This document shows, piece by piece, positions 2,999-61,673 of a stretch of 64,000 nt of DNA (positions are counted from its first letter, which is position 1; every line of letters begins with the position of its first letter). Source of the stretch: Bilabrum cf. latius. Lineage: Eukaryota. Location: NCBI GenBank assembly GCA_965178125.1, contig OZ237765.1, positions 682,001 through 746,000 on the forward strand. Direction: 5' to 3'. The notes under the pieces were generated by a model. The model was not told the origin of the DNA. It saw nothing but the letters and a program-made list of their open reading frames with translations, and searched no databases. Position numbers and translations under genes: made by a program.

Positions 2999-3398
2999 AT
3001 TGGCGATGTTTACAGCTAGGACAAGTCAGAATGCGCAACTTTGTGGATCACACGATCGGTGCTACAGTGCAATGTAGCAATTGCATTGCACTGTGGCACT
3101 CCTGAATGTCCTCCGCGGAAACAAGATTCGTTCGGTCGGTCGGTCTGTCGGTCAACGGGTACATTTTCGTTGCTTGCCACGTTCAAAAACACAAAACACG
3201 CGTATCTGTTCATATATTCTGCCTGGCATAGTTTTAAATACCATGTCAGTTTCCGCTGCCATCGAAGGACACAGCAAGCATGCAACGCCACAACAATCAA
3301 GCTCAATTTCTCCAGGTGAGAGGTATTGGACCCATTATATGATTGTGTACAGTTGTATGTACCGCAAGCATGCTCCTGTCTGCGTGTGGAAGTTTTGA

Positions 3399-9314: not shown

Positions 9315-11853
9315 ATGGGATGCTGTCCGAGCACTGAAGCTGGAGCAGGGGTGGTTGAAAAACGCAACTATGCCGGTATGTCCCCCGCAGAGGTGAGGTG
9401 AACGTGGCAACAACGACGAGGTTATCCGTTTGCTTCTGTTCCATCCCAATCTTGTAAAATCTCGATAGGATCTCCACGTCTATATTGCAGATCCTTTTGG
9501 CTGAAGAATGGGACGCAATCGATCAAGACAAGTAAGCGCTACCGCCTCTGAATTGCTCGCCGCTTTTTCTCGTGGCACCATTCTTCGGATACGGCATCTC
9601 TCTCATTAGGATCGCAGGAGCGGAGACTTGGACGAGACGGAGCTCATGCGTCTGATGGAAAGGATCGGCGTGTCTATCTCACCATAGGCGCTGAAGAAAC
9701 ACTTGAAGAAGTTTGACAAGGACGGCAGCGGCACTCTGTCCCGGGACGAGCTCGTGCCGTTCTTCGAAGAGGTCTCGGATCGCCCCACGGATGCGTTTGA
9801 CGCGCTGATCGCACAGTACGGCTAGGATGGTAAGCTCTCAGCAGCTCAGTTCGCCAAGTTCTAGGCTGAGCACCAGGGCGAGCACGCGGCCGCCGGCGAG
9901 ACCCCGGACCAGATGCTCGCCCGCTTTCGTGCCTCACTGCTCCGATCGGCGGATCGGGCGGCCGAGTCCCCCGACGGCGTGGACCCGGCCATCCAAGGGT
10001 ACAGGCAGACGGTCCACGACGCCGCCGAAAAGGCAGCCGAGGAGGAGGGTGGTGGCGGCGCGGCGGGAGCCTCGACCGCCGGAGGGGGCGCGGCGGGGGC
10101 GGCAGGGGATGGGGCGTCCAAGCTGAACCCACTGCAAGCAACGAAAGCCAAGAGCGGTGGGAGCAGCGAGTCGATGGTGGGAAAGATTCCCGTGTCCATA
10201 CGCCGCAACACCGCGGCAGTGGATGGGGCGGAGGGAAAGAGGGCGCAGATGGCTCGGTCGGCCGTGTCGGGGTCCAGCGACACGGTGTGTGTGCGAGAGC
10301 TCATGGCCTTGCTAACCAACCCCGAGGTGAATGGTATCATCGCCAACGATAGGGCGCAGAGAGTGTGGCAGGACATGACCCGCCCGCTCTCCCACTACCA
10401 CGTCTCCTCCACCCACAATTCGTACCTCGCCGGCAACCAGCTCTGGGGCGAGTCGAGCGCGGATGCGCTGCGCCGGGCGCTCTCGCTGGGCGCCCGGGTG
10501 GTGGAACTGGACACCTACGACGGGGATCCGGAGCCGATTATCACCCACGGGGGCACGCTCACCTCCACGCTGGGCTTCCGCGAGGCTGTCAGAGCCATCG
10601 GGGAGTACGCATTCAGGAAGCAGAACGTGCGGCCCTCGCAGTACCCGGTGATCATCACCATCGAAAACCACTGCAGCCAGGAGCAGCAGGCGGTGCAGGC
10701 CAGGATCCTCAAAGAGGAACTAGGTGACAAGCTGCACGTCCCGCCGGCCACCAGGCCACGGCTGTACCCCAGCCCAGAAGAACTCAAGGGCAAGGTCGTG
10801 ATACGGGACAAGCCGGGGGTGCCTCTGCCCGTGCAGGGCGAGGAGGGGGGTGTGGAGGCACCCACGGAGGCGCAGGTGAAGGCCGCTCAGGAGGCAGACG
10901 TGGAGGAAGAGGGGGAGGGCAAGGAGGGTAAAGGAGGCGCTGCTGCGAGCGGCGGCGCGGGGGGGGGCTCAAAGCACAGCAAGGCGATGCACCCCGATCT
11001 GCTGGCCCTCATCACGGTGCCCAACGTCAAGTTCAAGGGCTTGGACAAGCTGGAGGTCCTGGGGGCCGGGTCCACGTCCAGCTCCTTCGACGAAGACAAG
11101 ATCGTGAAAGTGGCGGGAAAGAGCCCCAAGTCGGCCGGGTTCATCGGGTACACGCAGACCCACCTAGCCAGGACGTATCCCAGGGGCCTCCGAGTGGACT
11201 CCTCAAACTACAACCCCACGTTCATGTGGCAGGTAGGCTGCCAGATCGTGGCTCTCAACTACCAGAGCGACGGGCTGCCGGTGCACATCAACCAGGGCAA
11301 GTTCAACGACAACGGAGGCTCGGGGTACGTGCTCAAGGCACCGCACCTGCTGCCGGCAGATGGCAAGTCCGCGGCAGCCGCGGTGCCCGCTGACTTTGAC
11401 GTATCTGGCAACAAGGCCCCCGCCAAGATGGACCTCAAGATCGAGCTAATCTCGGGGCACTACCTGCCCCAGGCAGCCGAGGACAAGGGCACCAGCGATG
11501 TGGTGGATCCATACGTCGTCATTCGCGTCAACGGGTGCGAGGCAGACGAGTCGAGCTGGACGAGCTCAACGGTCAAGGACAACGGGATCAACCCTCGGTG
11601 GAAAGGGGAGGTGGCCGGGGACAAGTACACGGCCAAGTTCTCCGTCAAACGGCCGGAGACCGCCGTCATCACGTTCGAGGTGTGGGACGCCGATACGAAT
11701 CCCGTGAACAGCGACGATCTGTGCGCGGTGTTCAGCTGCCCCCTCGACGCTGTCAGGCCTGGGCTACGGGTGGTGCCCCTGTGGGATGTGGGCAGCGTGC
11801 CCCTTCCTCTGTCGAACCTATTCGTGAGCGTGACGCGGGAGGACAAGGAGTGA
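9315..11853 (+). CDS. PLC: Phosphoinositide-specific phospholipase C (EF-hands, X and Y catalytic boxes, C2 domain) with N-terminal MGCC acylation motif
   Basis: Exons 9315-9392, 9491-9531 and 9618-11853 (GT..GCAG introns of 98 and 86 nt). EF-hands DQDKSGDLDETEL and DKDGSGTLSRDEL; X box QDMTRPLSHYHVSSTHNSYL..VELD..HGGTLT..IENHC; Y box RTYPRGLRVDSSNYNP..GCQIVALNYQ; C2 DPYV..NGINPRW. In-frame TAG at 9685, 9823 and 9862. Ends in TGA. Confidence 0.93.
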
Positions 11854-11962: not shown

Positions 11963-13429
11963 TTACCCCTGCCCGCCGTTGCCCGCACGGCCACCGCCAC
12001 GACCCTTGCGCCGGCTGCGTCCTCCACCTGCACCTCCACCTCCTCCATTACCACCACCTCCACCACGCCCTCTTGCCCGACCCCTGCCCCGCCCCCGTCC
12101 ACTGCCACCGCCACCGCCACCGTCGCCTTCCCTGCCTCTGCCCCGTCTCCCCTTCCCCTTTCCCTGCCTGGCTTGCTGGCTGCCTGTCTCGCCGCTTGTC
12201 CGCCCATCCGCCCCGCTAGCGGCCTGCGTCCGGCCCTTGCCCCCACCCCTGCGCGCGGCCCCGCCCGTCTCCTTCCGCTGGCCACTCGCCGCCCGTCCAC
12301 GGTCTCCGTGGTGCCCATCTGATCCGATCTGGCTGGTTGCAACCACCGGACTCACCGGCACCGTCGCACCAACAGACGGGCCAGAGCCAGAGGAGGACCC
12401 GTCCCCTCTGTGGGGGTCAGGGGTCCGACCTCCACTCTCCGTGCGACCCCTCGCCGACCCCCCCACCTCCTCCTATTCCCCATCGACCCCCACGCCCTCT
12501 GGTCTGAATCCTGTGGCCGGAAGCACCCTCCCACGCGCCGCCTCCTCGGGTGAGATGGGCAGGAACTGGCCCGCGTGCTGGCAGGCCGCGGACTGCCGCT
12601 CCTGCGGGGCGACGGCCCGGCCGCTTGATGCCAGTGTGACGAGTGCGATGGGCTCCATCCGGGTGACGGGGATGCTGGACTGGCCGGGGGCCTCGGGCCC
12701 GGATCGGTGTGACGAGTGCCCCCTACCAGCCCGCTTGCTGGCCCCTGCGGCGGGAGACCTCGGCGATGACGACTGCATTGCGGCCGCCGCCGGGACGTCC
12801 ACGGGGACCGCCGCGGCAATTCCCCCTGCACTATAGCTTGGAATCGGACTCGTGCTCCATCTTGCTGGGTCTAAGCTAAAGTACCGGGGCTGCCAGACCG
12901 GCAGGTTGCAACCGGTGTTGGCCCCCCTGCCGCTGCCGGGAACTGCCAGGGGCAGCTGCACGGCGCCGGTGGTGGGGTCGCGAGGAACGGAAATGGCAAA
13001 ACTAGAGCCGGGCGGTGGGCCTGGATCAGTCGGTGGGGCATCGACTGCAGTGGCGCTGCTGCCCCCAGCAGCTCCAGCTCCACCCATGCTGCTACTGGCG
13101 GCACGAGGTGGCGGCGCGGATGTGAGCCCTACGTCTGCGGCTCGTTTCGCCTGCATCCAAGCCGGCAGATCCACCACAGATGACAATAAAGGTGCTGTGG
13201 CTATGCTCTCATCGTGCATGAACCGACATCTGCTGGCAAACGGACAACGGCCGCTCTCGTAGAATGCCTTGCAGCGCGCAGCCTTGTACTTGGGATGCCT
13301 TGGCTACCTTCTCAGTTCGTGGCAGCCGTGAGCAAACTAACATCGATCCCCATACCGACACTTCCCCTCGAACTCAAATTTTCGGCAGGGCTCTGACTTG
13401 AATAGGGACTTATTGGTGCGACCCGCCAT
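11963..13429 (-). CDS. Tristetraprolin/ZFP36-like tandem CCCH zinc-finger RNA-binding protein with Gly/Arg-rich tail (about 488 aa)
   Basis: ATG at 13429: MAGRTNKSLFKSEPCRKFEFEGKCRYGDRC(TAG)FAHGCHELRR(TAG)PRHPKYKAARCKAFYESGRCPFASRCRFMH, which matches the TTP tandem-finger pattern. TAGs at 13337, 13304 and 12473. Ends in TAA at 11963. Confidence 0.85.
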
Positions 13430-13675: not shown

Positions 13676-15315
13676 ATGCACCGCGTGCGTACCCAAATCA
13701 AGCGAGCCACACAAACTATAGCATTTGCACCAAGAGCAGGTGTTGCCCTAGTCGTTGCTGCATTGATGGGTAGTACGCCTTCGAGCGCAGTTGCACTTGG
13801 AAGCTCCGACAGCATGGCGGCCACATCTAGAGCCAGCAGACCAACAATTTCGAGAGCTGTATTGTCAGATCGGATATCAGGCTGCTACTACGGCCTTTTG
13901 ACCGGCGATGCGCTTTCGATGCCGTATCACTGGTTCTATAGTCCCGCTGACATCACAAGGTATCACGGCGGTACCGTCAGAGACTTCGTTCGCGCACCCG
14001 ACACACACCCGGGCAGCATCATGAGCCTGAGTTCAACTGGTGGGGCCGGTCGTGGACAGTAGGAGGGTTCGGTAATTGGCGATGTGATTAACAAGGGCAA
14101 GAAGCACCTTTGGGGCAGACGCGGAGTGCACTACCACCACGGGTGAGCAAGGGAATGGTCTTCTTCCACAACTAGTGCATTACCGCTGCAAAGTATCGCA
14201 TTGCTATGTTTATTGTTTGTCCGGTGGCTTTCCTGTCTATGTTACGCAGCATGCTCGCCGGCGAGAACACGCTGAACGCCCTGTGCGCTCGGCTGGTGGT
14301 CCGCTCCATGGGCGCGGCGGGGGCCTACTCGAAGGATGCCTTTCTAAAAGACTACGTCGAATTCATGACCACAAAGGACTCCCACAACGACACGTACGCG
14401 GAGTCGTACCATCGGATATTCTTTGCAAACTGGGCCAAGGGAGTGCACCCGAGCAAGTGCGCCGGGGATGACGGCCACAACATCGCCACCATGGGCGGGT
14501 TCGTCACACTGCCCCCCGTGGTGCTGGTGGCCGCGGCCAAGGCCGGAATCGCCTGGGAACACGCGGAGGAGAAAAAGGAAGCCGACTCGGAATCGAAATC
14601 GAGACCACCGGGCGATGCTCCCGCCGTGGCAGTGGCCAGGATCGACCTGGCCAAGGCGAGGGAGGCGGGCGGCAGGGCGGCACGAGAGCACGTGCTGCTG
14701 ACTCACGCCAACGACTACCTGGCTGACCACGCAGAGCTCTACGGGCGCATGCTGGCGGGGCTCTTGCTCGGCGAGGACTTGCGGGAGGAGGCCGCGGCAG
14801 CGGGCAAGTCGCTGGGCGTGGACATCCCCGCGCTCGCGTCTGGTCGGTTGGCGGACACGGATGTGGTGGGCCGGCGGTTCTCGCCGGCGTGCTACATCCA
14901 CGACGCGTTCAGGGGCCTCTGCTTCTTCGCGCATAGGTACGCGGATTCTGCGGAGGAGGCTCTGGTAGGGAACACAAATGCGGGGGGCGAGAACTGCCAC
15001 CGGGGCGCCGCCCTGGGTGCGCTGGTGGGAACTGCGCTCGGGCTGGAGGGGGGGGAGGCAGGGAGGCAGGTGGGGGCGGGCGTGGGTGTGCCTGGGCGGT
15101 GGGTCAAGGGTCTGAATGCAGCCGATGAGATTCGGAAGGAGGCCGAGGTGCTCGTGTCCCTGGCGCTTGGGGAGGAAGTGCCCCCCGATGGTGGGCCTGG
15201 GAGCGGGGCTGGGGCTAAGGCTGGGGCCGGAGGTGCGAGTGACGAGGTCGGCATGTCGGCTGGGTCTGGCGGAGTGACCGAGGGTGAAGCAGGTGGCATG
15301 AAAATAGAATTGTGA
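13676..15315 (+). CDS. ADP-ribosylglycohydrolase (ARH/DraG/crystallin J1-like) family protein
   Basis: Motifs GLLTGDALSMPYHWFY, HYHHGMLAGENTLN (after splicing intron 14143-14249), HNDTYAESYHR and NTNAGGENCHRGAALGALVG. One TAG at 14060 in GGAGRGQ(TAG)EGSVIGDVI. Ends in TGA. The start may be a downstream ATG. Confidence 0.85.
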
Positions 15316-15560: not shown

Positions 15561-18500
15561 ATGCGTACTAACAACGGTGTTCGAGAACGAGAAGCGGCCT
15601 GCAGGCCGAACCAGCCACAAAAATATGCTCAGAAGGGCGGGTTCTTGCATTGCCAGATACGATGCTTTTCAGCTATGTTATTGCTGGTGCAGCTCACAGT
15701 TTTGAATGCATCCAACCGTCTCGGCCCGTGCCAACTGGGGCAAGGCTCGAGCACTGGGGGGGGGAGTTTCTGCCAGATTTACTCCAATGACAGCGTGTTT
15801 TCGCCGATTAATGCAGGGGAAAACATTGGTGCCCTAGCAGCAAGCGGAGACATGGGGATTTAGCGCGGGCTTAGGGCAGTGTCTGATTCAGGCATGGCCT
15901 TCTACTCGACAGGCGTTGTGGGCACTTCGCAATGCCAAATACACGGGATACATCTGGCATCAATGCGTGTTGTATGGCGCACACACCCATCGGATGTAGG
16001 TAGTGGCTGCATTTCAGAGCCGGCTGTCCGGCTGGCTGTGCAGGCACCACCATCTCGATGTCTTCTTGAAGTAGCAGCTTACACGCAGAAGTACCTGAGC
16101 GTCTATATCGTGAATGCATGCAAGCTGGATGCACTGGCACGGCAGGACCAACCCGACACGGTTATGGTACTAGAGCCGGCGACGCGAGACCGTCGCCTCG
16201 CAATCCCTACCTCTCTTGGCGCCACACGGCGCGGCATTGGGATGCCGGCCAGATGGATGGAATCGGCTGACCAAGGCTACCGGATTCTGGTCGGCTGGAG
16301 CGGCGAGTCCCTGGACTACCCGTCGCGCGAATGCAACACTCCAGCCCTCGTGCTCGTCGCCACCGCCGGGCCAAGCTTGGGGGACATGCAGGTCGAGTGG
16401 AGCTTAGAAGTTGGAGGGGTGCCAGGGGGCGACAGAAGGCAATGTGGGAAGGTTAACCCCAACAGGTCCCTTTCTCAAGACGAGTCAAAGTCCGCAGTGC
16501 ACGCCACTGGCAAGGGAGGCCGATTTCGCAGGCAAAGCCAAAGGCAAGGGCACGAGTCACCATCACCTGCGCGGCCGCCCCGCCGCTCCTAGTCAGAGAA
16601 CGATACAGCAAGCCTGGGAAAACACGGTCGCAGACTGCAGGCCGATGATCCCATCCTACATAACAGGGTCATAGACCCCATCAACCGGCCCACGCTCGGA
16701 TACATGATGGTCGGCATCCGAGGCCTCGGGCTGGCTTGCGTCGACAGGAACACGAGCAGCGATGCGGGACGTTTCGACCAAAATTAGTCACCGCAGTACG
16801 GACCATGTGGTAATGAGCAAGAGCTTGTTGCATTCTTGAGCATGGGCAGTGCGAAGCAATCCGGCACGGTCGCGGCGCGGCGGTTCCACAGGATTTCCGG
16901 TGTGTTCGGCACCATGCACAGGATCATGGCAGTGCGCGCGACGGACGGTGTGCTGCTGGGCGAATGGAGGCACCAGTGCTTGGCCACGGATCCAGTGTGC
17001 TAGTAGTACGTGCAGCTGCTGCAGCGGGGATTAAACTGGGGTATGCCGGAGATGCTTGGCTTGCGTCTGCTGCCTACGCGGCGGAACGGCTGGTCGTGGG
17101 GTTAGCCCCGCCGGGACCTCCCAAGTTCAGGTGGTGCATGCCAGCAAGCAGGCGTCAGTACGGTGTACGCAGAAGGGCAGCCTGACTGCATCGATGACAT
17201 GGACGTGCCCATCCCTTCGTCCGATGGGTTTCTGGTTGAGCTGCAGCAGTGGCCCATTGGACCTGACGGGCAGCTGCCGGTGACTGGAGACACGAGACTG
17301 CCTGCTGGGGGCTCTTTGCAGGATGACGCGGACGACTATCCCATCCACGACGATTCAATGTTCCCGCATGATGACGGGGCCATCATGCCAAGCGTGTATC
17401 CTAGCGGTGTTCCGCTTCCGTCGATGGCTCCGACATCGTGGCCCACACTCCAGCCCAGCCCTCTCCCGTTGGGCCACAAGTGCGGCGGGGGGCCGTTCTA
17501 CGGCCATTGCAGGAATGCCGTGATTCGCTTTAGGGCGTGGTTTAACGCAGATAACACTGGAGTGGTAATCAAACCTGTTTGGTCGCACAGTCTACGGCAG
17601 GCAGACCCGGACTCCATCACTGTGGTGCCCGGCAGGCATCTCCCATGGACAGGGCAGTCGCCTGATGACGCAGACGCAGGCATTCTGATCCGATCTCCAG
17701 CGATATCGGGCAGCTTCGACGACGACGTGGACGCACGGCACGATGATCAGGACGATCAGGAGTATGCAAGCAGCCTCGTGGGCCTGCCCCAGTGCCAGAC
17801 CGCCATGCTGCGGCTCTCGGACGGTGCAGTCGTGTGGCAGGACGCAGCGGGTTGTCTGTCTCGGTGGGCCACACGATCCTTCAGCGCGATCATGTACGGG
17901 ACGCGCTAGAGCGAGGTGCTCGTGCAGCCTGCCGGCACTGCGCTGGAGGGGTGGCGCGTGCCCGGCCCTGCGTGGCTAGTGGGCTTCCACACTGTGACGA
18001 GCGGAGGCACGACCGGGCTGAGGAGCGGATCGATCCATGTGCTGGTCAGGGATGCTGCCACGGGGCGCGTGGCTCTGAACCAGCCGTTGGGAATTGAGTC
18101 TGCCGGTTCCAACGGCGAGCATGCAGCGCATGATGACGTTGATGAGCGGTAGCACCGTGGTATTGGTGCAATGACAAACTACGGCAGTGTTACCGAGGGT
18201 ACCGATGACGAAGATGGAATGCGAGATTTCCCTGTGGAGCCGAGCGATGGCGTGTCCAGGTCCAGGTCACTGCAGCAGCCGCGAGGCAACGATGATTGGG
18301 GAGATGATGACCTCAACGAGTATGAGGCCCTATTCACGATGCACGGGCAAATTCGATCCGTGTTCCCCGTGCCGTGCGCCTCCATCAACGCCTCCATCGA
18401 GGCGGCAATGGCAGGCACAAGCCATGGCACGCGGGAGGCGGCGGGGTATTCGAACGGGACGGATTCGCCGACAAGAGGATCCGCCTGCATCGTGCTGGCT

Positions 18501-19193
18501 CTCTCCCTGCCAAGGGACCTCCTGTTCATGAGGATGGTGCAGCTACAGCCGCTGTTCCCCGGCCAGGAGGGCTGGGCCAAAGCCGCGGAGCAGAGGCTCC
18601 AGAGCCCCGCCCCGGTCCCGCCGGCCATGCCGTCCCCGGGATGGTTCGCTCCGAACGTTCGTTATTCGTCAGCCCCCACCCCAACGGCAAGCCCAACTCC
18701 CAGCAAGCACGCGCCACTGCCTGCTCCTGGCAACCCCTCAGGCACTGCCCGCGCGCTGTGGGCCGCGGCCTGTGCGGCCCTGGCCTGCATCGTCCTGGGC
18801 GGTATTGCGTGGGTCTGGTGGGGGCCTTGGGGGCAGGGCCGCGGGAGTGCAGGCGCAGGGGGGTATTAGCAAATCGATAAGGTGGGTGAAAGAGAAGATA
18901 ATGGTGCTGGTGCTAGTCCTGGGGCCCTTGAGGCCGGTGCGAGCGGTTCAGGTGGAACCCATGGCTCCTCGTCCTCGTCCTCATCCTCGGGCAATGATAG
19001 TTACCTGCAGGTCAATCGTGATCGGGCTGGAGCAGCGGCGGGCGCGTCAATCCTGTCGGAGCAGATGGGGCTGGTCCAGGTAGAAATGGGAGACATGATG
19101 GGAGTGGCATCCTAGTAGCGGGGAGGAAACGCGGGGGCTGGCCCACTGGCAGGCGGCCGCGGCGGTCAAATACACAAAGGTGTCTCAATTTGA
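15561..19193 (+). CDS. Type I membrane protein, tandem paralog 1 of 4 (large ectodomain, Pro/Ser/Thr stalk, one TM, cytoplasmic tail)
   Basis: Six track ORFs in one frame joined by 11 TAGs, ending in TGA at 19191. Shared family motifs GLPQCQTAMLRLSDGAVVWQDAAGC, HVLVRDAATGRVALN and PSPGWFA. TM at about 18755-18820. Start uncertain (15561 or 15674). Confidence 0.7.
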
Positions 19194-48100: not shown

Positions 48101-48624
48101 GCCGCGGCCGAAGGATCCGCCGCGGGGTGTGCCGCGTCTTTGGGCTCCTATCCGCTGCCAGGCTCCACCATTTCAACAGCAACTCCATCGGCAGACTTAT
48201 TTGACTTGTTTTCGGCAGAATTAGGAAGGAACTGGCGCCGTTGGGCGGCTGCCGCGGATGCATCGTCCTCGAGCTACACGTGCTTGTTCGTGTCGGGCGA
48301 GTCCCAGCCCCCGTCATGAAGCCGGCAGCAGCACTAGTACGCTATGAGGATGCATAGTATCAACGCAAGTCCGAATGCCACCCACAGTCCGGCGATGATG
48401 CCTGGCACCCCGCCACACTGCCCGTTAGCACCAACCGTCAATGTTGCCGTAAATATGGCGACCGCAATCGTGGTAAGAACCGAAACTCCTCCGACTATAG
48501 CACCTCCCAGAGTGCCCCATATACCGAGGCTAAGGTCGCAACAACCTTTGCCGCACATCGTGCGAGCGGTCTTGAATGAAAATCCACTTGTGAACCGCTT
48601 TGCTTGCATTGCGGAACGTTCCAT
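45187..48624 (-). CDS. Penicillin acylase / AHL-acylase family Ntn hydrolase (MEROPS S45) with N-terminal TM extension (about 1145 aa, intronless)
   Basis: Motifs FSLGAVHAQYRFAQMDLMRRAIGGRLSELIG, beta-subunit start ASNDWVIHGNHTASGGPILANDPHL (Ser at 46957-46959), TANNKI, YRALRI, GPGYRGIVDF and GQSGNLFSRNYYD. Four TAGs (48334, 48274, 48148, 46114) join three track ORFs. Ends in TGA. Confidence 0.9.
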
Positions 48625-48742
48625 AAGGTTCGCCCGGGTTCGTTCAAAAGGCTCACTTCTGGACCGGCATTTTTCGCAAAAGGTATGGTATGAAGCGCAC
48701 GTTATACGTCACTTTGTTGTGATTTAGCAGATTTTGGATAAT

Positions 48743-51700
48743 ATGCATAGCTCGTCGTCCTCTGGTGATGAGCGTGATGAGATCGTGCGGCTATGGGCAG
48801 CAAGCGAGCACAGCGGGCAGTGCGTTGTATGTCACGATAGTGGCCGCATCAGGCATTGCTGCAACTAGCATATTTGTAACAAATGCTACTATGGAACAAC
48901 AGACTGCCCAAATTGTAAGAAAACACACAAACGTCCCACGGCGGGCACCGGATTGGTGCAGTGGCCGGTGCGAAGAGAGGCGGTCCTGAGCGCTTTCTGC
49001 GTACCACTGGTGCTGATCGGGAGCATGCTGCTCTACATCAACATGATAATTATAAACGAGTTGGAAATTGATACTCTCATAGAGAGGAGGGGGTGTGCGG
49101 CTGGACGTGGCCGGTGGCTCGCCTGCGTTGCATCGAGCTCCCTCCAAGGCCAGGCCAGGAGCCCATCCCGCCGAGACTGGCATCGATGCGACGAGGCATT
49201 CGCATAGGAAGATCATTTAGTGAATATCCAATCGGTTAATTCGACCTTCATATCCCAAAGATCCCAGAATGCACCGTTTTAGCATGCTGGCTGGGGTGCT
49301 GTGGCAGGTTTCCCAGCGACTCAATCCGGTGCTGGTAGCGCTAGAGCTGACCAGGTGCCACCATCAATTCATTCGAACCATGCAGCCGTGCTTGGTGGCG
49401 TCCAGGGCTGTGTGTGTGCCCCTGCATGCGTGGTCGACGAGTGCGCTTTCAGGGAGTCTGGCGGTCGCGAGGGCTGGGACTTTGAAGCTGCCAGCTTCCA
49501 GCCACTCGTCACACTCGGCAGGGAGGATTTCCTCCGCGGTCCGTCTCCAATGCTGTGGGATCGGATCTCACTGGGCAGGGCGAGCGGAGACTGCGGCACT
49601 GCAGTGGGGGGCCATGCCATGGTGTTCGGCGGCGTGCGGTCCCAGGCCGGGCAGTTCAAGAGCGAGCGCTCTCTGCAGGGCTAGGCTCCTGCGCCGCGCG
49701 AGCTCCGCACGCTGCCGGTGGATGTATCAGGAGGCGGGGCCTGGGTGTTTTGGCTGCGGTACGGCACGGGCCGGGGCCCAGACGCGGGAGGGCGGTGCCC
49801 GCTCATGTCTCGGGCCCCTGTGTCGCTCGAGGCCAGCACGGACGGGGGGCGTGCCTGGGCGGAGCTGAAGCGGTTTGCAGTCGACAAATATCGGTCCATG
49901 GAGTTTAAGAAGGTGGTTGTGGAGATATCTGGTCGGATCGGGGACCTTGCCAGCAGTGGGGCGGGTGGATCGTCCAATACCACGGTGTTCCGATGGATCT
50001 AGCGAGACTATTACCAGACTGGCGATGCGTGGGCCATCGATGGGATTGCGCTGCAGAGACGCATGCAAGTAGAATGGCTAAATGGAGCTGCCAGTGAGGC
50101 TTCAAGTCACGTTGCAGCGTCGAATAGTTCCGGTGTACCAGCGCACCTCGACTCTTTCAGGGACGAGGTCAGGCAAGAGTCCGACCGAGCCGCCTGTTGC
50201 TTGGGTTGCGGGAGCTGCCAGCATCTGCCAGAAGGCAGCACTGGGCACGACCCTTGCCAAGCAAGCGCGGACACAGCTGCGTCCGCATCGGCCGAGTCAC
50301 CCGTGCGATACGAGCTGGCGCCCGTTTCGGAGTCGTTTCTGGCGGTAGTGCTGCTTGTGGGCGGAGTGCGAGCAGCCTTTGCATGCGTTGGACCGCTGTG
50401 TCAGCTATCCATGGATGTCTGCATCAAGCCCGCCGTGCTTGCGCCCATTGACAGAGCTCACAAACAGCGAGAAGAGGCATCTTCCGAACGTGCGCTCCGC
50501 GATGTGGTGACCCGAGACTGCGAGAGGAGGAGGAGAGAGAGGAGATTGCATCTGCACGCCCAGTTTGTCAGAAGGGGGGGGATGTCACGAGAGCAGGCAG
50601 AAGGTCTGTATTTGGCACGGCATGGCCCTGCTAGGCATGCGGCGAGGCAGCGACGGAGAGATAGGCTGGTGCACGAGGCAGGATCGGGCGCTGCAGCAGG
50701 AAACCCAGGCGCAGACTATGCGAATGACACAGGGGAAGATGATGACGACTAGAGAGCTATTAGGGCAGTGCAGCGAGTCATATGGTCGTATGCGATGAGC
50801 TGCATGCGGAAGGTGTGCTGTTGTGCCGACCAGTTTGATCGCGTCACAACTGTGAGTGTTGGCTCCAGCGAATCAGAGTCAGATGGGAAAACCGGCGCAG
50901 CGTCCCAGGACATGGATCCAGACGAACCAGTGACAGCCACAGACAGACTGTTTGCGGGGGAACCCCGATCCAGCACCTCCGGCAAGGGTCGCAGACCCTC
51001 CAGACGGCAGCGCAAGCGCATGGACACGGCAGAGCGCCAGAGGGTGGAGCTGCTCCGCTCCAAGGTGCGCAGGAAGCTGGCAAAGTCTATGCAGGGGACG
51101 GGACACGTGCCGCAAGAGCTGCTCGATGCAGACATCGACGCCCTAGAGAAAGAAGAGGCTGACCAGCTTCGTATGCGAGACCACTTCAGGCGAGCGCAGA
51201 GGTGGACTGAAGGGGCCATCGCGAGGCAGGCTTCGCGCAGGACTCAGGACGCACCCCAGCAAGCATTGACTTCTAGGGTATTCCAGCCACTACTTGACGA
51301 GCACAATGAGCTTCGGTAGGACGTGCTGGAGAAGACGAGGCGCGCCATCCGGAGAGGCAGGCGGTACTCGGTGCATCGGTCGCCCATGCTGCTGCTGGAC
51401 GCAGAATCAGCCGATGCTGCGGACCGCGGCACCTTCATCAAGAGAACGCTCAAGGACAAGGTTCACGGCATTGTGCGCACGGACCTGGAGCGGGCTGCAG
51501 CTGTACCCGATCGGCCACTTACGCCAGAGATCCCGGGGGCATGCACGATCAGGCCCAGGACGAGGGATGCGAGAGGGCGGCAGGTGCAGACCGATAGCAA
51601 GGGCGGGGTGACAGTGCCCGAGTCTGGGCACTTGCTTATAGGGGGCAATACTGCACAAGATCGATTGCTGCTGCGCGATGTGTCTTCGGACGAAGATGAT

Positions 51701-54403
51701 CGAGGTGCTAGGGCTCCGACTGGGATTCAGCTGCGGCTACAGCAAGGCCACGGTGATAGCGGCGGGCTGCAGCGACGAGCAGGATCTGATTCTTAGCCAT
51801 CAGATGACGCGGCAAGCAGTGATGATCAACAAGCGAAAAAATAGCACGCCCCATAGTCATCGCATCGCCCTGCTAGCATAGACAAGCACATCGCTCGAGC
51901 CATGGTGAAGCAGGAGGAGGAGGTGATGATGCGAGCCGCAGACCTTGCCTCGCTTAGCACGCACACGAGCGACTTGAGCGCTGAAGATCTGGAGGTCTTG
52001 GAATGGGAGCACATCATCGCAAGGGGAGGGGCAGCTATGCACCCCACCAGCCTACCCTTCCAACCCACGGCAGCTGAGATCGAGGATGAGCTCGAGAAGG
52101 CCGACCGGAGGGCTGCAGGGGCTCGAACGCAGTAGCCTCAGAGCGCGCTTGCAAAGTTCACCAGCCAAATGAGCGCGGCTGAGCTCAATAGGCGGAAGAG
52201 GAGGGAAAAGCTCGTTGCGAATCACGGCAACAGCGCAGTGGCGTGGGTGCATCCCCGCGAGATGACTGAGCGCATCCGCCGCAAGGCCAGAATCAGGCGA
52301 AGGGCGGGAGTTCGGGCCTCGCTCAGGTCACTTGCATTTGAGGAGGCAGCACAGCTCATGGCGCGCGAGAGGGCAAAGCCGAGGGTGTTCTCGTGGAGTA
52401 TTGTCGACGACCCGTGTACGCAAATGCTGTCATGGGCAGCTGCCTCGATTCTAGTGTGCGCCGGTGTCGCTGGATTGCTCGCTGCGAGAGCTGCAAGCAT
52501 ACGGCACACCTACACACATCGGTGGATTAGTATTGATACGCCCGTGCCCGATGCATTAGTGATCTTCGGCGCCGTGGTGACAGACGTCGTCTCTGCTTTT
52601 CGCTCGCTCGCTTCCTCCTTCGGACTGTACGGTGCGGTAGGAATGCCCTGCAGTTGCATGATCGAGCGCAGTGCCTGCCAAAGGATGCAAGGGTAGCGCA
52701 TGGAAAATCCAGGTTCAGCTGCAAAGCAATTGAAGCCTAAACAAGGTCAGTGGCGTGTCGAGATGACAGTGCCGCGCGCACAGCCAGCCCAAGACCTCGT
52801 GGATTTCATGCGGTCCTCGAATGTTCGCATTGGGCCCGCGCCATCCCCTAGAGATTAGGACACGCGAAAGGAAGCTCGTCATTCCGGACAAGCCCGGGAT
52901 ACCCTGCTCAGCGCAGCAGCGGGCACAATCCGAAGCGCTCATTTCGCCCCTGACTGGCTGGCTCGAGTGGCGTGCGCGGGCGCAGTCCTAGACCTCGTGC
53001 CCATAGCATCTATGGCAACCAGCCTACTCCGCGCAGTGCCTGAGCTGGGTTTGCTGCTTGCATGCGTTGCCGCCGCAAAGATAGCCGTTGGAGGCCGCCA
53101 GCCGTGCGGCTCGCTGGGTCTTGCTTGCGTGGAGCTGCAGGGGGCGCAGTGCGGGTTTCGCACACCCCGCGCCCGTGCATCAGCGGTGGCGGCGTGCTGT
53201 GGACCAGGGTGCAGGCGGGGCGCTCTGCTTGGCGCGTGTGCATGTGGGGTGCCTATGGCTGCGCTCGGGGTGGTCACTGCTTTGATGTCAATGGCTGTTC
53301 AGAGCGACACTGTGGCTGGCAGAGATCTCCTTGAGAACTCACACCGAGCTATAGCGTGGTGGATCGCTGGATGGCTGCTGCTCGGGGCCGGATGGGGCGC
53401 TTCATAGGCATGTCGCGCAATCGTCCCATTGCGGCTGGATGCACTTCTTCTGTCTCCTCCGTGGGCCATTCAAGGCCCAAAGGGTGGTCACGCGAACCGA
53501 TTCGATGTTCTTTTCAAGCTCGTGGAGAGGCGGAGGGGTATTTTGACCAGGAAGTGGCCCCTACTGTGCGGGTGCTGCGAGGGGGACCCGGGTGCGATCC
53601 CAGGGATGAGTCCTGTCGATGGCCTGCTGGATGATGTGGCTCGTCTGCTTGGGTGCATGCAAGGGGGCTAGGAGCACTTTGTGCTGCCTGCGCCCGGGCA
53701 GGCGACGGAGATTCGTTGGGTGCTCGTTGCAGGGGTGGTTGGCGCTGAGACTCTGCGGAGACGACTCGGCAAGCAAGGCATGCTTCGATTGATGGAAGAA
53801 GCGACAGCCCCAGACTGGGGCTCGATTCCTGCTGTGGTGGAGGGGGCCTCTTTGGGCGATAATGTCCTGCCGAGCAGCGGTGATAGTGCCAGATAGGCAG
53901 GATACAATAGCCAGGAGAATCACGAAGCAACGGGTCCAAGGGAAGGAAATGGCAGCCAGATCGAGGCAATCGACACGGAAGCGATCAAGCAACAAACAGG
54001 ACCAGGGCAAGCCGGATCCGCAGCTGTCCCCGTTCCTACGGACAGTAGCGGGCACCTTCCTGCGTCTCACTAGGATCAGTCAGCTGCAGGACAATTGAAT
54101 CCCGAGAAACCGCTTGCAGCGAACAGCAAGGGCCGTCCTGGCTAGGCTTTGGGCGCCGTGGGGATAGGCGACGACCGATCTGTGAGGAGCGCCATGTCTT
54201 CGGAAAGAGTCAGGGCAAAGGCAAGGGCTCTCCGTCGCGCCTGGCTCGGGCTGGAAGATGCTGGCATGGACAGCATTCGGTCCAGCCGCCGCACGCAGTT
54301 GCCAGTCGTGCCTCGAGATGGGGGCGACTAGGGGTTGGAGGAGATCGCGGCTGAAATGCACGCGGTCACCAAGATCGGGAGAGTAGGCACTGAATCAGAC
54401 TGA
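48743..54403 (+). CDS. Large (about 1886 aa) multipass membrane protein with N-terminal RING-like zinc finger and a reelin-subrepeat-like domain
   Basis: Eleven track ORFs in one frame, 19 TAGs, TGA at 54401. RING-like CVVC..RHCCN(TAG)HICNKC..CPNC; TM at about 48985-49060; reelin-like CG..AMVFGG..RELRTLPVDV..FWLRYG..C..VSLEASTDGGRAW..FRWI(TAG)..DAWAIDGI. Further TMs at about 50330-50420 and 52420-53410. Confidence 0.75.
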
Positions 54404-54754: not shown

Positions 54755-57700
54755 ATGCTGGAGAGAATGCTGTCTCGCCGGCGGCGGATGCGTCCAGTGT
54801 ACCTCCGACGGGCTCTATCGTAAGAGTTTAATCCTAGTTAGTATCATCAACACTGTTTAATTACATCGAATTCAAGTCATTATCACGGCAATGTATTGTT
54901 ATTGCAGGTACATATGCGATAGCAAGCGGTAGAAGCTAGGGTTACCACCGTAGGGCACTTCGTGGGAGGGACCTTGCACGTCTCCCCGGCCCGCTTCCCT
55001 GTGGCCAGCCGGCGCGTGGGGCCCGCCAAAGACGCACTCTGCGGTGGCTATTCGTCTCTCTGGAGAGGCTTTAAACTTTGCAGTCGATCGCAACGATGCA
55101 ATTGTGGTTGCAGTGCTGGCTCCACTTAGCAGTGCGGAGCAGCTGGGGCTGCAAGCAGCCGGCCGCACAAGCAGTGCAAGGTCGCAGTCAAAAGCCCAGC
55201 AGAAGCATCGCGACAGAAGCGGCCATGGAATGCGTACGGATAGTAATCTTGGCATTCTCTTGGGCGTGCGCATACTTTCAGCTCAACCAGTATTGCGCGG
55301 CGGCAGATTGAACAAGGCTCTGCTCGCAGGGAGCACTGCCTTAAATCCAACCAGTGCGAATGCCGGTGGGGCCGCGCGGTTTGCACCACCAAGCACATCA
55401 AGTGCGCACACAGCTACATAGATTCCCACGCATTAGAACCAGTCGACTCAATTTTGGAGCGCCGGAGATGAAGCGCCGAGAGGGTACGATGCTCTGGATC
55501 GACTTGCACAGCACGCGGGTGTTATGCAAGGCTCCCTCGTTGGAGAATCTGTGAGTGCATCTGGTGGCAGCATGCCTTCATCAAGCACATCAGGAGTATC
55601 TACCAAAGCTTAGCGGGCAGTATCACCCGCTAGCTTCGATGACAGGGAAACCTCTAGAGACTTGTTCCCAGGGCTGCCGCGAGCACCGCCCTCCTTGAGG
55701 GCATCCCCATCCCTCGGCGATGCTGAAGTCGGACGAATCGGAGTTGCAACAGGGTTGCATGCTCCTGGTGCCATAGGGGCCGGGGCAGCTACACACTCGC
55801 CTGAGGACATCGTGGTTGTCCTGCCGAAGCGGTTCACAAGGCATGGTCGGCTGGTTTTGCTTCCGTTTCTAGCCAGCAACGCCCTCTTGGGTCCCGATCA
55901 ATCGGAGCAGGGGCTGCATACAGCTGAAGCAGCAAGTACAAAGCGAGGGTCGCTCGATTCAACTTCAAAGCGACTGCCTCTAGACAGCGAGTTCTGCAGG
56001 GCACTGGCGACCCGCCTCGAGCCCTTGGATTCGGGGCATTTGCGTAGGTCTGCGGCATCGAGGGGCAGTCATGCAGCGCGATAGATGCATGGCATCGCAT
56101 CCAGGTCTCTCGTGTCCCCTAGGCAGGTCCAGCTTGCTGTGCAGGAGGCCGCCGAATCTGCCAACCGAGCAGGGATGCACCGGAGCAACGGCCACGGGGC
56201 GTCCTCTGGCGCAGGGTCCCGGTCGAGCGGGTCGGCCCAGTGCGCCTCGCTGTCACCCATCGCGGTGAGGGTGAAGCCTCTCGGGGGCACTCTGAAGACA
56301 GGCCCAACGGAGGTGCAGAGCGCCGTGTGCACGGCCCGCGTGTCCACTGGCTCCGAGGGGGCCACAGAAGGGAGTAGTGACGCGGGGAGTGCCTTGGGCC
56401 CGGGGCAGACGCAGCACCGCTTGTTTGCCGACAAGCTGCTGGACGTGTCGGCGGACTGGAACGGTGCATCAAGTGCGTGGTCGGACCAAACAAGTTCGAG
56501 GCTCAAGGTGTGCCTGCAGCACACCTCTATGTAGTGGCCCGTGGCTGCCCCCCAGCCGGACGAGGTGACCGGCAGCATACCACTGGCAGGCAGCTCGCAC
56601 GGCAGTGATGATGAATTGCGGCGCAGCTCTGTTGATGGAACAGCTGCTCGCAGCACAGGCACCGCGGGCAAAGTATCGGGTGCTCCTGTGTCCTCGCTGC
56701 TTCGGATGCCCCGCGTCCAGGACGACCAGGACCCGACGAGGCCACTGCTGGACCCACCGTCCATCGCCCTCGCGGGCGAGTTCTGGCAGCCACCTATGCG
56801 AGACCCCGCATCCATGCAGCTGCTTGGATGGTCCCCCGCCATGCCCAGGCTGCACCTGAGGCACAGAGCCGACAGGCTGGTGCACCCCCTGAGCGGGGCG
56901 GCGGCTCGCGCAAGCGCCACGATGCAGAAACTGGGCGGGCCCATGCCCAGGTCTGCAAGGCTCGTGCGCTGGAGGCAGACCGCCACAGCCCGCATGCGCA
57001 TGCTGCACACGAGCGCGGTCCGGCCCGCCGCTCCCGGCCGCCGCTCCAAGCTCAATCTAGCCATCGAGGCGGCGACCAGGGACACGGCACTGGCCATGGG
57101 CATCCCGCTGGAGGCACTGGAGGAGACCCAGCCCCGCGGGGCGGCTGGGAGGACAGCGGCTGGGTCGTCGGCTGGCGAGTCGGGGAGCGGAAGTGTGACG
57201 AGTGCGATGGACGGGACCTCCCCGCTACCGAGCCCCACCCCCAGCGCATCTCCCGTGCCTGAGGACTCCGTCGACGGCGATGGCGATGGCGATGGCGGGG
57301 ACGGGCCTGGCGGCAGCGATGAAGACGATGGGGACGATGGAGGTGAAGATGAAGAAAGCGCCGAAGTTACGGAGTCGCAGGACGGCGATGATGGAGACGA
57401 TGAAGACGACGATGAGGATGGAGGTGCTGGCGGGACAGGCCCAGGCACAGGCAGTGGAAGTGGGAGTGGCATTGCTCTGTCCGGGCGCGGGCGCAGGGGC
57501 AGTGGACCGCGTGCAGCCAAGCGAGCAAGGACGGCCGCGCGACCGACTTCAAGCCCCCGTGGGCGCGGACGTGGACGAGGACGTGGCCGTGGGAGGGGCA
57601 GGGGGCGTGGCAGGGGAAGGGGGCGCGGGCGCGGCATTGGAGCCGGTGAGGCCGGCAGGGGTGGGCTGTCATCAGTGTCGGGACGAGATGTGTCCTCTGT

Positions 57701-60700
57701 ACCCATGCGGATCAGCCGGCTGCCACGAGGATTCGAGCTCCTAGACTTGGGAGCCGTCAGCGACGACGAGACCGAGTGCGGGCCCGTTAGGATGCGAGAC
57801 TGGCTGCGGCAGCTCGGCAAGAGGGAGAAGCCGAGGGCGGGGGAGCAGGAGTCCGCGGTGCACCTGCGGCTGCCTGGGCGCTCCCGTCTGCTGCCCGGGG
57901 GCCGTGGGCACCAGGAGAAATCGCGGGGTGTGATCGACGGCCGGAAGGTCGGGGCGTGGGGGCAGGACCAGGAGGAGCCGAGCCTTGAGGGAGCGGGCGA
58001 CTCGCCAGACGCTGAGGTGGAGCTGCTGGGCGATGGGGTGCACGGCACTGCTGCACGGGCCACTGAGATGCCGGTGCTTCTGGGGGCGGCGATGCGGAGG
58101 CCCTAGCCGCTGGTGCATCGGCTGGCGGATCCTGGGCTCGTGCTTGAGCAGGAGATGGTGGGAGCTGCCGAGGTGGACCTGCTGGAGGAAGGCGCGGCAG
58201 CGGGGCCCGATATCGATGCAGAGCGCGTAGCGGCGGCGAGTGGTAGGAGCATCGGCAGTGGCAGTAGGAACGGTAGATCGAATCGGATGCGAGGTGGCTC
58301 CAACTCTGACTCCGACTCCGACTCTGATTCTGATCAAGAAGGCAAAATAGGAGGCGATCCGGGACTCGGACTTGGGCTCAGCAGGTCCCGCGGAAGAGCG
58401 TTTGCTTCAAATGGGTACTCCGCAGGGCACTAGAACGGATCCTAGATCGGCCGCAACTCCAGGGTGTAGCCTCGATCGACGGGTCTGGAGCCATCCATCC
58501 ACTAGAGCAAGCGCGGCACCGGCCCTGCCATCATCGGGAAGCTGCGGGTCATGGACCCGGCACTGGACGGCCAGAATCTCCCGCGCCCCGCTGCCGCCAG
58601 GTAGCAGCGGGCCCCCGAGCGGCTGGTCTTCCACTGGCTCGCGCCTCGAGTAGAAGTGCAGAGGGCGCTGCTTGAGGGGTGGGACGAGGTAAGGTGCAGG
58701 GCACTGCACCGCGCCATCCGTAGAGAGAAGCTAGAAGCGATGCCCCCAGACGAGCGACCCAGTTCGGAGGACGAGGCCGATTCGGGCGAAAATTTGAACG
58801 AGGACGAGGACGAGGACGGCGCCATCGTCAGAGGTGCGCACGCTGCCAGTAGGGGCAATGGCAAGGGTAAGGGCAAGGGCGCCGACCCTGGTAGCCACAG
58901 TAGCAGCAGCAGCAAGGGCAGTGGCAAAGAAACTGGGAAATCGCCCGCTCGGGCGCAGTCAGAAGCGGTCGAAAGGCGGGGGCGAGGCCGGCGAGCCGCC
59001 CGCAAGGTCGTTGTAAGCATGACAGACAACTCCAGCAGCGATGATGAGGACGGTGGTAGTGGCAGCGATTCTAGGGGCAGCGTGCAGAGCAAGGTCGCGG
59101 GCGGTTCGCGGGATTCAGGCGATTCCTCTGAGGATGGCAGCGGGTCCGACTCGATGGGCGCTGCTGCAGCTAGCGGGGGCTGGAAGGGACCCAGCAGCAG
59201 CAGCGTTCGAGCACTGCTGGCACTCGGTGAGGTAGAGGAGGCCGACGGGCAGCATGGGATGCGGGCTGATGTGGGTAGTGGGGATTCCACAGACGGAATG
59301 ATTGCTGCCCCGATCAGGAACGCATCGAATGGAAGCACCGTCGATGCACAGCCAGGCGGACTAATCTCCGGACAGGAGGCGTTTCCTTGGCTGTCGCGGC
59401 TGCTGGCTGACCCGTACTGCTGGAGCAGCCGCACGCAGGTCGTTGTCGGGATGGAGTGCCCCGCGTGCGACCAGCCGTGCGGAGACGTCCATGGGCTGCT
59501 CGAGCACATGCACGCGGACCACGTGGAGCGGATACAGGTGGCGCTATGGGGGGTATCCACCCCCTAGCAGCTGGTCAGCGGGGGGGGCAGGGCCCTTGAC
59601 GCCACTGTAGGAGTAGCCTTTGCTAGGGGCGGGGCGGTTGGCATGCCGGTTGCCTTGCGTGGGGTGGCAGGCAGGGAGCAGAGCCCCCTCGTGTATCACT
59701 TTGGCGCCTCCCTGGCTCACTTTGGCATGCCGGTGGGGTGCGATGGGGGCGGGGGAATTTCCCCTGGAGGACCCCCGCGTGGGGTAACTCCCCTGGATCT
59801 GCGCACCGAGGCTGCCGCTGCATCTCTTCGCTACCTTGCCCGTTTGCTGGACCAGCTGACCCACAAGCCGCACTCTGAGTGTGAGACGAGACAGGCTCTC
59901 CTGACAGAGACCATCGGCTGCGTGCGGGACTGCCTTCTCGTGACCCATGCAGGAGAGGGGGAGGGGAGTGACACTGGAGACAAGGGGAGTGCCTCTTCTG
60001 CAAGTAGCAAGACCAGCGGCCTCCAACAGGGGTCGTCGCACAAACGCAAGGCAGATGAGCCTAGTGCAGCGGGTGTGGGTGCAGCAAGCGATGGCCTGTA
60101 GGACGGGATAGGTGACGACCTGGATGACGGTGAAGGCGGATTGGCCGCCATGGCTGCCCTGATTGCCATGGAGCAAAGCATGGAGCGCGACGATGGGAGC
60201 ACAGACGGGGATGCTGGTGTTGGCGGGGCGGGGCAGGACCCGGCATGGCTCGGTGTCGACGAAAGCACAGACTCAGGTGCAGGTTCAGGCACTGAAGCTC
60301 CCGCAGCTCGCCGCGCTGCTTCCGACCCACGGGACTCGACTGCCTGGCACCGTGCCGTCGCTGACGTGGCCAGGTCAGTGCTCGCGAGTCACCATGCCCG
60401 GCTTGACCCCACCAGTCGCGAGCACCCGCACATACCCCAGAGGTGGGAAGCCATCAGCCGCGTGCTGCCCACCGAGCTCAGGCCGATGCCGCCCCCTGGC
60501 CCTCTGCCCCGGCGCACCATTTCGGGACAGGGCAGCCAGGGCCGCTCCCCTGCCGCCATGTACACACAGAGCGGGGTCTTCCTCGGGTCCAGGAAGGTAC
60601 GAGGGGTGCTGGACGTGCTGAACCCCAGCGTGGGGGCGACAGGTGCAGGGGCGGGGGCAGGATCGGATGGTGCTGCCTCAGGATCAGGGGCAGGGGCAGG

Positions 60701-61673
60701 GGCAGGGTCAGGCTCCGCCAAGTCTGCGGTGAAGGTACCCGACACGATCGAGGCGCGGATCACGGCGGCGCGCGCTTCGCCGGCCCTCACGGACCCTAGC
60801 CGCAGTGCAATGCACCTGCAGTCCAGCGGTAGTGCGTCTGCGTCCAACTGCTGCCTCATATGCACTCGTCACAGGGCACCCGGGTCGATCCGGAGGGCTG
60901 CGGTGCGCGCGGCGCAGCGGCTGGTCCGCGCCGCGGCCGGCCTCACTCGTCACACAGTGCTGCCTCAGGGTAGCTTGGTTCCTGCCGGCGGACTTCCTGC
61001 GCAGGACCCGTTCGCCGCGGCTGGAGGCACCAGTGTGACGATTGACCTGTGGTCGCGCGCGGTGCCGCTGGGCTGCATGCACGGGCCTGCTCGGCTCATG
61101 CCCGGCGAGCTGGCCGCCCTGCTGTACCTGTGGGAGAGGCAGGAGGAGGGTGGTGGCTGGATGCCCGTGCAGTACGTACACTCTCGTTCCCTGCAGCCGG
61201 TGAGGGAGGGCGAGCCGGACGTTGACTCGGAGGACGAGGGGGAGGATTCGAGGGTGCTGGGGGGGGTGGGTGGATCGGATGGGTACCTGCTCAAGAGGAG
61301 CGATGCGCTGTTGCGGGGGATGGGGGACTTGGGTGACAAGGACAGGCTGTTCATGCGGCTGTGGAACGTGTGGACGCATGCTGTGACGCCCGAGTTCCAG
61401 TACGAGATGCCTCACGTGTCGATCGGATTCGCGAGGGAGCATGCGGCCGTGATCGTGGGGGAGGGGCTTCGGTCCTCCATGGCCAAGCACATGATGCTGC
61501 TGTGGGAGCGGAGGCTCATCAGCAGAGACGTGGTGATGCGTTGCATGCGGATCGTGGATGGAGTCGGGGAGCTGGCGGGGTCCGTTGCGAGGGCAACTCG
61601 AGGAGAGATCAGACCCGATGAGCTGCCCGTGCCGAGGACTTTTGGGCATGGTTCGGCGCTTGGGCGAGACTGA
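54755..61673 (+). CDS. SUZ12: SUZ12/EMF2-like Polycomb repressive complex 2 subunit, greatly expanded (about 2280 aa)
   Basis: N-terminal RMLSRRRRMRPVYLRRALSYI (spliced across intron 54820-54907) matches the SUZ12/EMF2 motif. C2H2 finger CPACDQPCGDVHGLLEHMHADH at about 59457-59525. C-terminal VEFS box QYVHSRSLQP..DVDSEDE..KDRLFMRLWN..HMMLLWERRLI. 15 TAGs; ends in TGA. The true start may be upstream (ATG 54617 or 54663). Confidence 0.8.

Follow-up and report, generated by a model that had tools for sequence, protein, structure and literature searches.

A probable UAG-to-glutamine nuclear code in a putatively Cafeteria-related bicosoecid flagellate

What does an in-frame TAG codon signify when it lies in the middle of a conserved and otherwise intact protein domain? 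The question is raised by a gene on the minus strand of the 64-kb stretch of DNA analysed here (hereafter the window, with a GC content of about 60%), which codes for a tandem CCCH zinc-finger protein of the TIS11/tristetraprolin (TTP) type. Its frame opens with an ATG (13429-13427), closes with a TAA (11963-11965) and contains three TAG codons (Table 1). The first of these was found exactly where the original prediction had placed it, in the minus-strand string TGT TAG TTT GCT CAC GGC; it follows directly on the third Cys of finger 1, and the His ligand is three residues further on. Read as a stop it would leave a product of 30 residues, and finger 2 is intact despite it (Pfam zf-CCCH, E 2.2e-12, two stretches), both as claimed. 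We propose that in the nuclear code of this apparently Cafeteria-related bicosoecid UAG very probably encodes glutamine, with UAA and, mostly, UGA retained as stops.

Table 1 Features discussed in the text. Positions are those of the window unless a locus is named.
Feature	Position	Strand	Remarks
TIS11/tristetraprolin-like tandem CCCH zinc-finger gene	11963..13429	-	488 aa with TAG read as Gln; TAA end
CCCH finger 1 (Cys15 to His34)	13328..13387	-	
TAG codon 31	13337..13339	-	conserved Gln of TTP finger 1
TAG codon 42	13304..13306	-	in 18-residue linker; column variable, mostly hydrophobic
CCCH finger 2 (Cys53 to His72)	13214..13273	-	intact
TAG codon 319	12473..12475	-	in low-complexity tail; sense reading inferred
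Phospholipase C (PLC) gene: EF-hand, X, Y, C2	9491..11853	+	TGA end; probably a further exon upstream
1210-aa ORF	15561..19193	+	11 in-frame TAG, 9 within one X5 contig
2019-aa ORF	48344..54403	+	20 in-frame TAG, no TAA/TGA; Reelin subrepeat match
2260-aa ORF	54891..61673	+	15 in-frame TAG; VEFS-box match at C-terminus
eRF1 gene	L001:1069-2941 (G000 C35)		two in-frame TAG, one of them closing a predicted exon

The tandem domain matches PDB entries 9y10, 1rgo and 1m9o (E about 1e-21). Like these and ZFP36, it has two C-x8-C-x5-C-x3-H fingers spaced 18 residues apart and an RHPKYK lead-in; unlike them, it has its Gln written as TAG, the lead-ins FKSEP and YKAAR and a long low-complexity tail. 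The paired fingers, the linker length and the (R/K)YKTEL-like lead-ins of the TIS11/TTP family are present, with the lead-ins somewhat changed. Proteins of this family bind AU-rich elements and promote mRNA decay, and going by family membership the protein described here is a putative AU-rich element binder.

How strongly does codon 31 itself speak for glutamine? A word-index search with the zinc-finger region returned two matches, and column counts were taken from a representative search with 152 match proteins, from which 44 TTP-type tandem domains were picked by their HPxY[KR] linker pattern. The column of codon 31 holds Gln in 39 of these 44, Leu in 4 and Asn in 1; the 32 most similar domains all have Gln, as do three of four aligned PDB tandem-finger chains. 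The column is thus predominantly Gln in the closest homologs, and the predicted consensus stands within the TTP subfamily. It does not extend to CCCH fingers generally: over all 813 fingers of the same 152 proteins the residues at this position vary (Arg 141, Gln 125, Thr 114), which makes it diagnostic for the subfamily alone. The linker TAG, 11 codons further on, falls in a column with Gln in none of the 44 domains (Val 14, Leu 12, Pro 7). Because of this column and the variability among CCCH fingers, the zinc-finger locus taken alone is weak evidence. The glutamine call rests on, and is supported by, genome-wide data: dyneins, the switch II region of Rab proteins, eRF1, a TAG/CAG exchange in a relative and a tRNA(CUA) gene. 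We regard the zinc-finger gene itself as intact and ordinary, of the TIS11/TTP-like kind, with TAG as the spelling of one conserved Gln.

Within the window, reading TAG through yields nine open reading frames (ORFs) of 1000 or more amino acids, compared to none under the standard code. Read-through of TGA yields one and of TAA none, and both were rejected as codes on these counts. In 20 block shuffles no ORF of this size appeared (longest, 752 aa). Several long frames merit mention in their own right. The ORF with the C-terminal VEFS box is a candidate for a Suz12-like Polycomb protein. Four tandem plus-strand ORFs of 1033-1210 aa between 15561 and 30911 lack a Pfam match and have in common a short Cys motif and, C-terminally, a segment of membrane-like character; they look like a paralogous family of surface proteins. 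Two long, TAG-rich ORFs of lower GC content occupy positions 2-7967 (at least 999 aa on the minus strand, 1522 aa on the plus strand), again with no Pfam match. A penicillin-amidase-family ORF (45187-48624, minus strand, E 1e-156) overlaps the Reelin-repeat ORF head to head; the overlap depends on first-ATG definitions, and the true starts of both probably lie further downstream.

The pattern is not confined to the window. In the assembly of this organism (48.6 Mb, 111 contigs), the longest frame was taken from each of the 19 dynein heavy-chain matches; these frames run to 2953-4999 codons and together contain 370 in-frame TAG. Across 464 kb, at least one TAG was found in 47 of 57 predicted genes, with codon counts of 249 for TAG, 375 for CAA and 1710 for CAG. 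The 65 Ras-family matches contain 48 TAG, but just 2 TGA and 1 TAA. Essential genes, namely those for eRF1, Prp8, GluRS and the dyneins, carry the codon as well (the four TAG of the Prp8 frame were left out of scoring). Core histone matches and alpha/beta tubulins have none, as expected for a rare codon, and no in-frame TAA was found in the long genes. Over 62 genes, the TAG share goes up as GC3 goes down (rho -0.60) and correlates just weakly with the CAA share (rho 0.23, p 0.07), the latter a point against the glutamine reading.

Which codons, then, end genes? We compiled 39 gene ends fixed by a marker, comprising 19 small GTPases (C-terminal Cys motifs), 14 dyneins, 5 alpha/beta tubulins and eRF1; histones are not part of the set, nor are the loci lacking a usable end marker, namely 5 dyneins (of 19) and 11 Ras loci (of 30). 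Genes terminate in TGA 31 times, in TAA eight times and never in TAG, which sets an upper 95% bound of about 7.5% on TAG as a terminator (7.6% when calculated for n = 38). GC content falls by a mean of 0.118 across TAA/TGA (n = 57) compared to a mean of -0.001 across the last TAG of a frame (n = 23; p = 3.5e-5). The zinc-finger gene behaves likewise, with GC going from 0.80 to 0.50 across its TAA and from 0.67 to 0.75, without a drop, across its third TAG. UAA and UGA keep their role as stops and do not serve as codons within genes.

The release factor is instructive in two ways. Its gene, the exons of which were predicted from GT/AG sites and homology, itself has two TAG codons, so that eRF1 could not be made without reading UAG. 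One replaces the near-invariant Gln44 (Gln in 89 of 96 homologs); the other falls in the column of Leu69 (Leu 89, Gln 6). Position 69 affects UAG read-through according to the accessible part of PMC5304391, and Gln is found there in six homologs, too. The protein keeps the GTS, E55, NIKS, S70 and YxCxxxF elements, and its N domain carries the changes G29A, N30D, I35V, S60V, F117P, N129S and K130H, each seen in 0-4 of 96 homologs, a set beside which the supplementary eRF1 alignment of PMC5304391 also bears on rarity. Numbering is human, by offset from the motifs named in the accessible text of that paper, and one of the predicted exon joints falls at G29A and N30D. We suggest that an eRF1 with such an altered N domain would no longer terminate efficiently at UAG. 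A second match to the eRF1 family (on contig C20) was read as a Pelota-like protein and dropped.

These data also bear on the alternative that survives best, a dual meaning or unfinished reassignment in which UAG is glutamine internally and yet terminates some genes. The intact core motifs of eRF1 would fit it, and TAG is slightly enriched in the last 10 codons of the 57 predicted genes (6/570, 1.05%, vs 0.46% inside); two frames end in TAG-TGA, one of them a doubtful repeat-rich ORF, and the zinc-finger contig of sequencing run X5 stops (at 12477) two bases ahead of the third TAG, leaving that codon uncovered. Against this, X5 contigs of two neighbouring genes likewise stop about 300 bases before their stop codons, TAG is absent from all marker-defined ends, and the GC drop at TAA/TGA has no counterpart at the last TAG. 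We give this alternative a small chance only, although an occasional gene may end in UAG.

The identity of the residue was assessed on dyneins, using 33 de-replicated dyneins from outside (of 120 matches) for comparison. At columns conserved to 70% or more, TAG stands opposite Gln in 24 of 43 cases, Glu in 9 and Leu in 1, with other residues occurring singly; the Gln shares of the known glutamine codons are 287/458 for CAG and 32/59 for CAA. As CAG itself lies off Gln columns 37% of the time, TAG at some non-Gln columns is expected. The profile of TAG, taken over 80 covered sites, correlates far better with those of CAA (r = 0.977) and CAG (0.975) than with that of GAA (0.38). A likelihood model trained on sense codons ranks the residues for TAG as Gln (set to 0), Glu (-85), Leu (-182), Tyr (-193) and Trp (-271) in log units. 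The switch-II Gln of Rab/Rho GTPases has a catalytic role; at 21 such sites, counted without two false pattern matches, it is written TAG seven times, CAG nine times and CAA five times, and four of the TAG cases lie within an unbroken DTAG-x-E stretch.

A candidate decoder is at hand. Rfam scoring of 63 of 780 tRNA candidates gave one with the anticodon CUA (G000 C23:907607-907679, minus strand; locus L092:1491-1563; 69.8 bits), and a genome-wide CUA pattern search, which intron-bearing or odd genes could escape, returned the same single gene. The predicted tRNA folds into a cloverleaf with a 5-nt variable loop. Gln-like features are G73, G2:C71, U35, A37 and D and T arms as in tRNA-Gln(UUG), while the acceptor stem (6 of 7 pairs, including C1:G72), the anticodon stem (4 of 5 pairs) and the length of the variable loop are closer to tRNA-Tyr(GUA). 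Over the whole molecule 50/73 positions match Tyr, 48 match Gln-UUG and 44 match Gln-CUG, and it looks like a Tyr/Gln mosaic. In the accessible part of PMC9976931, the eukaryotic Tyr determinants are given as A73, C1-G72, G34 and U35 and the bacterial Gln determinants as including G73, G2-C71, U35 and A37; the entry for eukaryotic Gln is blank in its table. In the tRNA(CUA), A73 and G34 are missing and G73 and G2:C71 are present, and the genome has a GlnRS-like gene. We infer that the tRNA is charged with Gln: a cytosolic GlnRS would recognise G73, G2:C71, U35 and the Gln(UUG)-like D and T arms, and the single tRNA(CUA) would pair with UAG and not with UAA.

A pattern search of the genome found no tRNA(UUA) gene; of two matches, the one on C9 is a non-tRNA, in which ARAGORN finds nothing, and the other is a mitochondrial tRNA-Lys. 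The ARAGORN call 'tRNA-Pyl' is merely that program's label for a CUA anticodon, and the Gln columns argue against pyrrolysine. As a separate observation, a near-identical 61-nt tRNA-like element with A-box and B-box occurs at 18 listed places on many contigs, mostly near their ends (e.g. C6:2447, C9:4364, C11:1340304, C12:1321471, C23:7856 and C25:7345), possibly a subtelomeric tRNA-derived repeat or a small RNA gene.

The mosaic nature of this tRNA leads to an alternative that we rate slightly below dual meaning: UAG might be ambiguous, with Gln as its main reading and Glu (or Tyr) inserted in a smaller share of cases because an unusual tRNA is mischarged. The Tyr-like C1:G72 pair and an anticodon-loop C38 as in tRNA-Glu(CUC) would be consistent with this, and one TAG of the GluRS gene (L094, G000 C15), just before the EFSRL motif, has Trp opposite it in one aligned PDB chain and Tyr in two others. 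There is also an excess of Glu at conserved TAG columns (9/43 vs 43/517 for CAG plus CAA; Fisher p = 0.012), although the nine sites are not independent, three being in one column, and paralogs in the same genome have Gln at several of the Glu columns. The best mixture of Gln and Glu (10%) gains just 1.5 log units over Gln alone, any share of Tyr, Leu, Lys or Trp worsens the fit, and the switch-II Gln of Rab proteins is written TAG at seven sites.

Could the codon be removed or altered before translation? Run X5 shows two GT..AG joints (9531-9618 and 14141-14249) that X1 lacks, and X5 is thus taken to hold spliced RNA. An X5 contig (12477-13563) and a contig of X7 (13135-13367), a run with a study code separate from that of X5, span codon 31 with 0 differences and 0 gaps. 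The TAG is unspliced in both, a point on which the original prediction would otherwise have fallen, and the linker TAG is unedited in both as well. Altogether 14 in-frame TAG codons are covered without a difference by three X5 contigs: two of the zinc-finger gene, three of the PLC gene and nine of the 15561 ORF (contig 15797-18886). The three PLC codons (9685, 9823 and 9862) are retained in a spliced contig, in which they sit behind an EF-hand restored by the removal of intron 9532-9617. X6 and X7 provide partial cover. We conclude that UAG is present unedited in mature mRNA, as judged from contigs of a run, X5, that is labelled 'RNA? (probably DNA)', its RNA status being a tool's guess and no run being recorded as RNA.

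A standard code combined with mRNA editing (U-to-C, to yield CAG, or A-to-I, to yield Trp) or with splicing-out of the codon is, in our estimate, highly improbable. Such a scheme would gain from the guessed RNA status of the runs and from the use of contigs, which drop rare variants, rather than raw reads; two TAG codons of the window, 9607 (in the PLC intron) and 14173, did turn out to be intronic and were dropped from the counts. It is opposed by the spliced PLC contig and the 14 unchanged codons, by the presence of a tRNA(CUA) gene and by the fit of Trp, the worst of all residues.

Less likely still is an assignment of UAG to leucine, like that of the rhizarian exLh and some phyllopharyngean ciliates. 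The linker column of the zinc-finger gene (Leu 12, Val 14 of 44) and the Leu69 column of eRF1 would suit it, but the single Leu among 43 conserved dynein columns and the log-likelihood of -182 do not. The 5-nt variable loop of the tRNA(CUA) also differs from the large variable region that the accessible text of PMC11687900 gives for Leu tRNAs. A CUA pattern search in which long variable arms were allowed yielded just the one gene. CAG to TAG is a common mutation, but a zinc-finger pseudogene, an assembly error or C-to-T decay has next to no probability, already refuted as it is by the genome-wide pattern: decay would produce TAA and TGA too, both absent from frames thousands of codons long, essential genes (eRF1, Prp8, GluRS, dyneins) likewise carry TAG, and runs X1, X5 and X7 match the assembly at codon 31.

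With glutamine as the preferred reading, we turn to the organism. The best named match of its eRF1 is that of Cafeteria roenbergensis (69%). In a single-gene eRF1 tree of 40 rows it forms a clade with Cafeteria (95/82) on a long stem and, within it, groups with the metagenomic protein P0274 (100/100), while Bicosoecida sp. CB-2014 falls elsewhere. Tandem SSU genes of 1700 nt on contig C12 are presumably bicosoecid. Judged by this one gene with its long stem, the organism appears to be a Cafeteria-related bicosoecid flagellate. A metagenomic relative (L140:2-709), 92% identical over its eRF1 part, has an in-frame TAG opposite a CAG of our genome, with 99 synonymous differences in 236 codons; its eRF1 is represented in the protein collection by a 160-aa piece. 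Among 79 other metagenomic eRF1 loci, 55 could be anchored and show no in-frame stop in 215 codons, a length too short to prove the standard code.

Some observations concern the neighbourhood of this clade, of which P0274 is the third member beside our genome and L140. The eRF1 P0281, labelled Symbiodinium sp. KB8, groups with Cafeteria-like sequences, a hint that the assembly it comes from contains bicosoecid contamination; the closely related P0277, P0279 and P0280 have Gln at eRF1 position 69. A second, distinct SSU rRNA gene of 1802 nt (L034; C95:6099-7900), which we take to be dinoflagellate-like, sits on a separate contig and probably stems from a co-cultured organism, and small contigs may follow another code. 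The mitochondrial-looking contig C111 (loci L004 and L019) carries a tRNA with the anticodon UCA, suggesting that UGA is Trp in the organelle.

We found no reported nuclear case from stramenopiles in literature searched for bicosoecids, Cafeteria, Bigyra and stramenopiles, mostly non-subscription papers without supplements. It is likely that a new lineage with UAG as glutamine has been found; the submitters of the assembly may already be aware of the code. Considerably more speculative, and as a whole rather doubtful, is a joint reading in which this genome would be the first among stramenopile nuclear genomes to show stop reassignment, the change being common to a small clade beside Cafeteria, with a Tyr-derived decoder and a switch in a GC-rich setting. 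The decoder would then not descend from tRNA-Gln(CUG), contrary to the prediction for such codes, but from an amber suppressor of tRNA-Tyr (GUA to CUA, one change) or from a Tyr/Gln chimera, and its change to Gln identity would have come with the acquisition of G73, G2:C71 and D and T arms of the Gln type. That the genome is GC-rich and stops mainly at UGA would speak against the usual codon-capture route under AT pressure, to which the recoding in Blastocrithidia is tied in the accessible part of PMC12153298.

Few codes split UAG from UAA. Those with UAG as glutamine are known, in the accessible parts of the sources, from a single transcriptome and from ciliate assemblies that are incomplete, and no decoding tRNA had been found in them. 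Our case brings together, in one assembly, the codon table, just one candidate tRNA, GlnRS and eRF1, with the well-studied Cafeteria as control. It thus becomes testable how an eRF1 drops UAG yet keeps UAA and UGA and where such tRNAs originate, questions of relevance to amber recoding in eukaryotes. A practical consequence is that annotation under the standard code would cut short most long genes of this lineage, considering that 47 of 57 predicted genes contain TAG.

Among known codes, the closest is that of Iotanema spirale, with UAG as Gln and UAA/UGA as stops (PMC5304391, PMC9161772; accessible parts). The codon table is identical, with UAG alone reassigned and to the same residue. As described there, Iotanema is a fornicate and as such unrelated to a Cafeteria-related stramenopile; its main stop is UAA, in contrast to UGA here (31/39), and its tRNA was predicted and not found, whereas a tRNA(CUA) gene was found here. 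Its eRF1 carries T32G, which is absent here, where GTS is intact and neighbouring residues are changed; T32G marks the route of a single lineage, and the code is not defined by it. The ciliates Hartmannula sinica, Trochilia petrani and Protocruzia tuzeti, with UAG only as Gln, have the same assignment, likewise inferred from conserved columns, according to the accessible text of PMC11687900; they differ in using UAA most as stop, and no suppressor tRNA is given there as detected for H. sinica and T. petrani. Many ciliates, hexamitin diplomonads, ulvophytes and Amoeboaphelidium read both UAR codons as Gln (PMC5304391, PMC11687900, as far as accessible). They, too, read UAG through a tRNA(CUA), but in our organism UAA is unreassigned: it closes 8 of the 39 genes with a fixed end, and the pattern search gave no tRNA(UUA). 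UAG is likewise uncoupled from UAA where it encodes Leu (rhizarian exLh, TARA phyllopharyngean MAGs) or Ser (Scotinosphaera; all as cited in the accessible part of PMC11687900), with another amino acid and, for Leu, tRNAs with a large variable region. UAG as glutamine is thus a known type of code; its genome-wide use is well supported here, in a lineage from which our searches turned up no earlier report, with a candidate tRNA and the release factor in hand.
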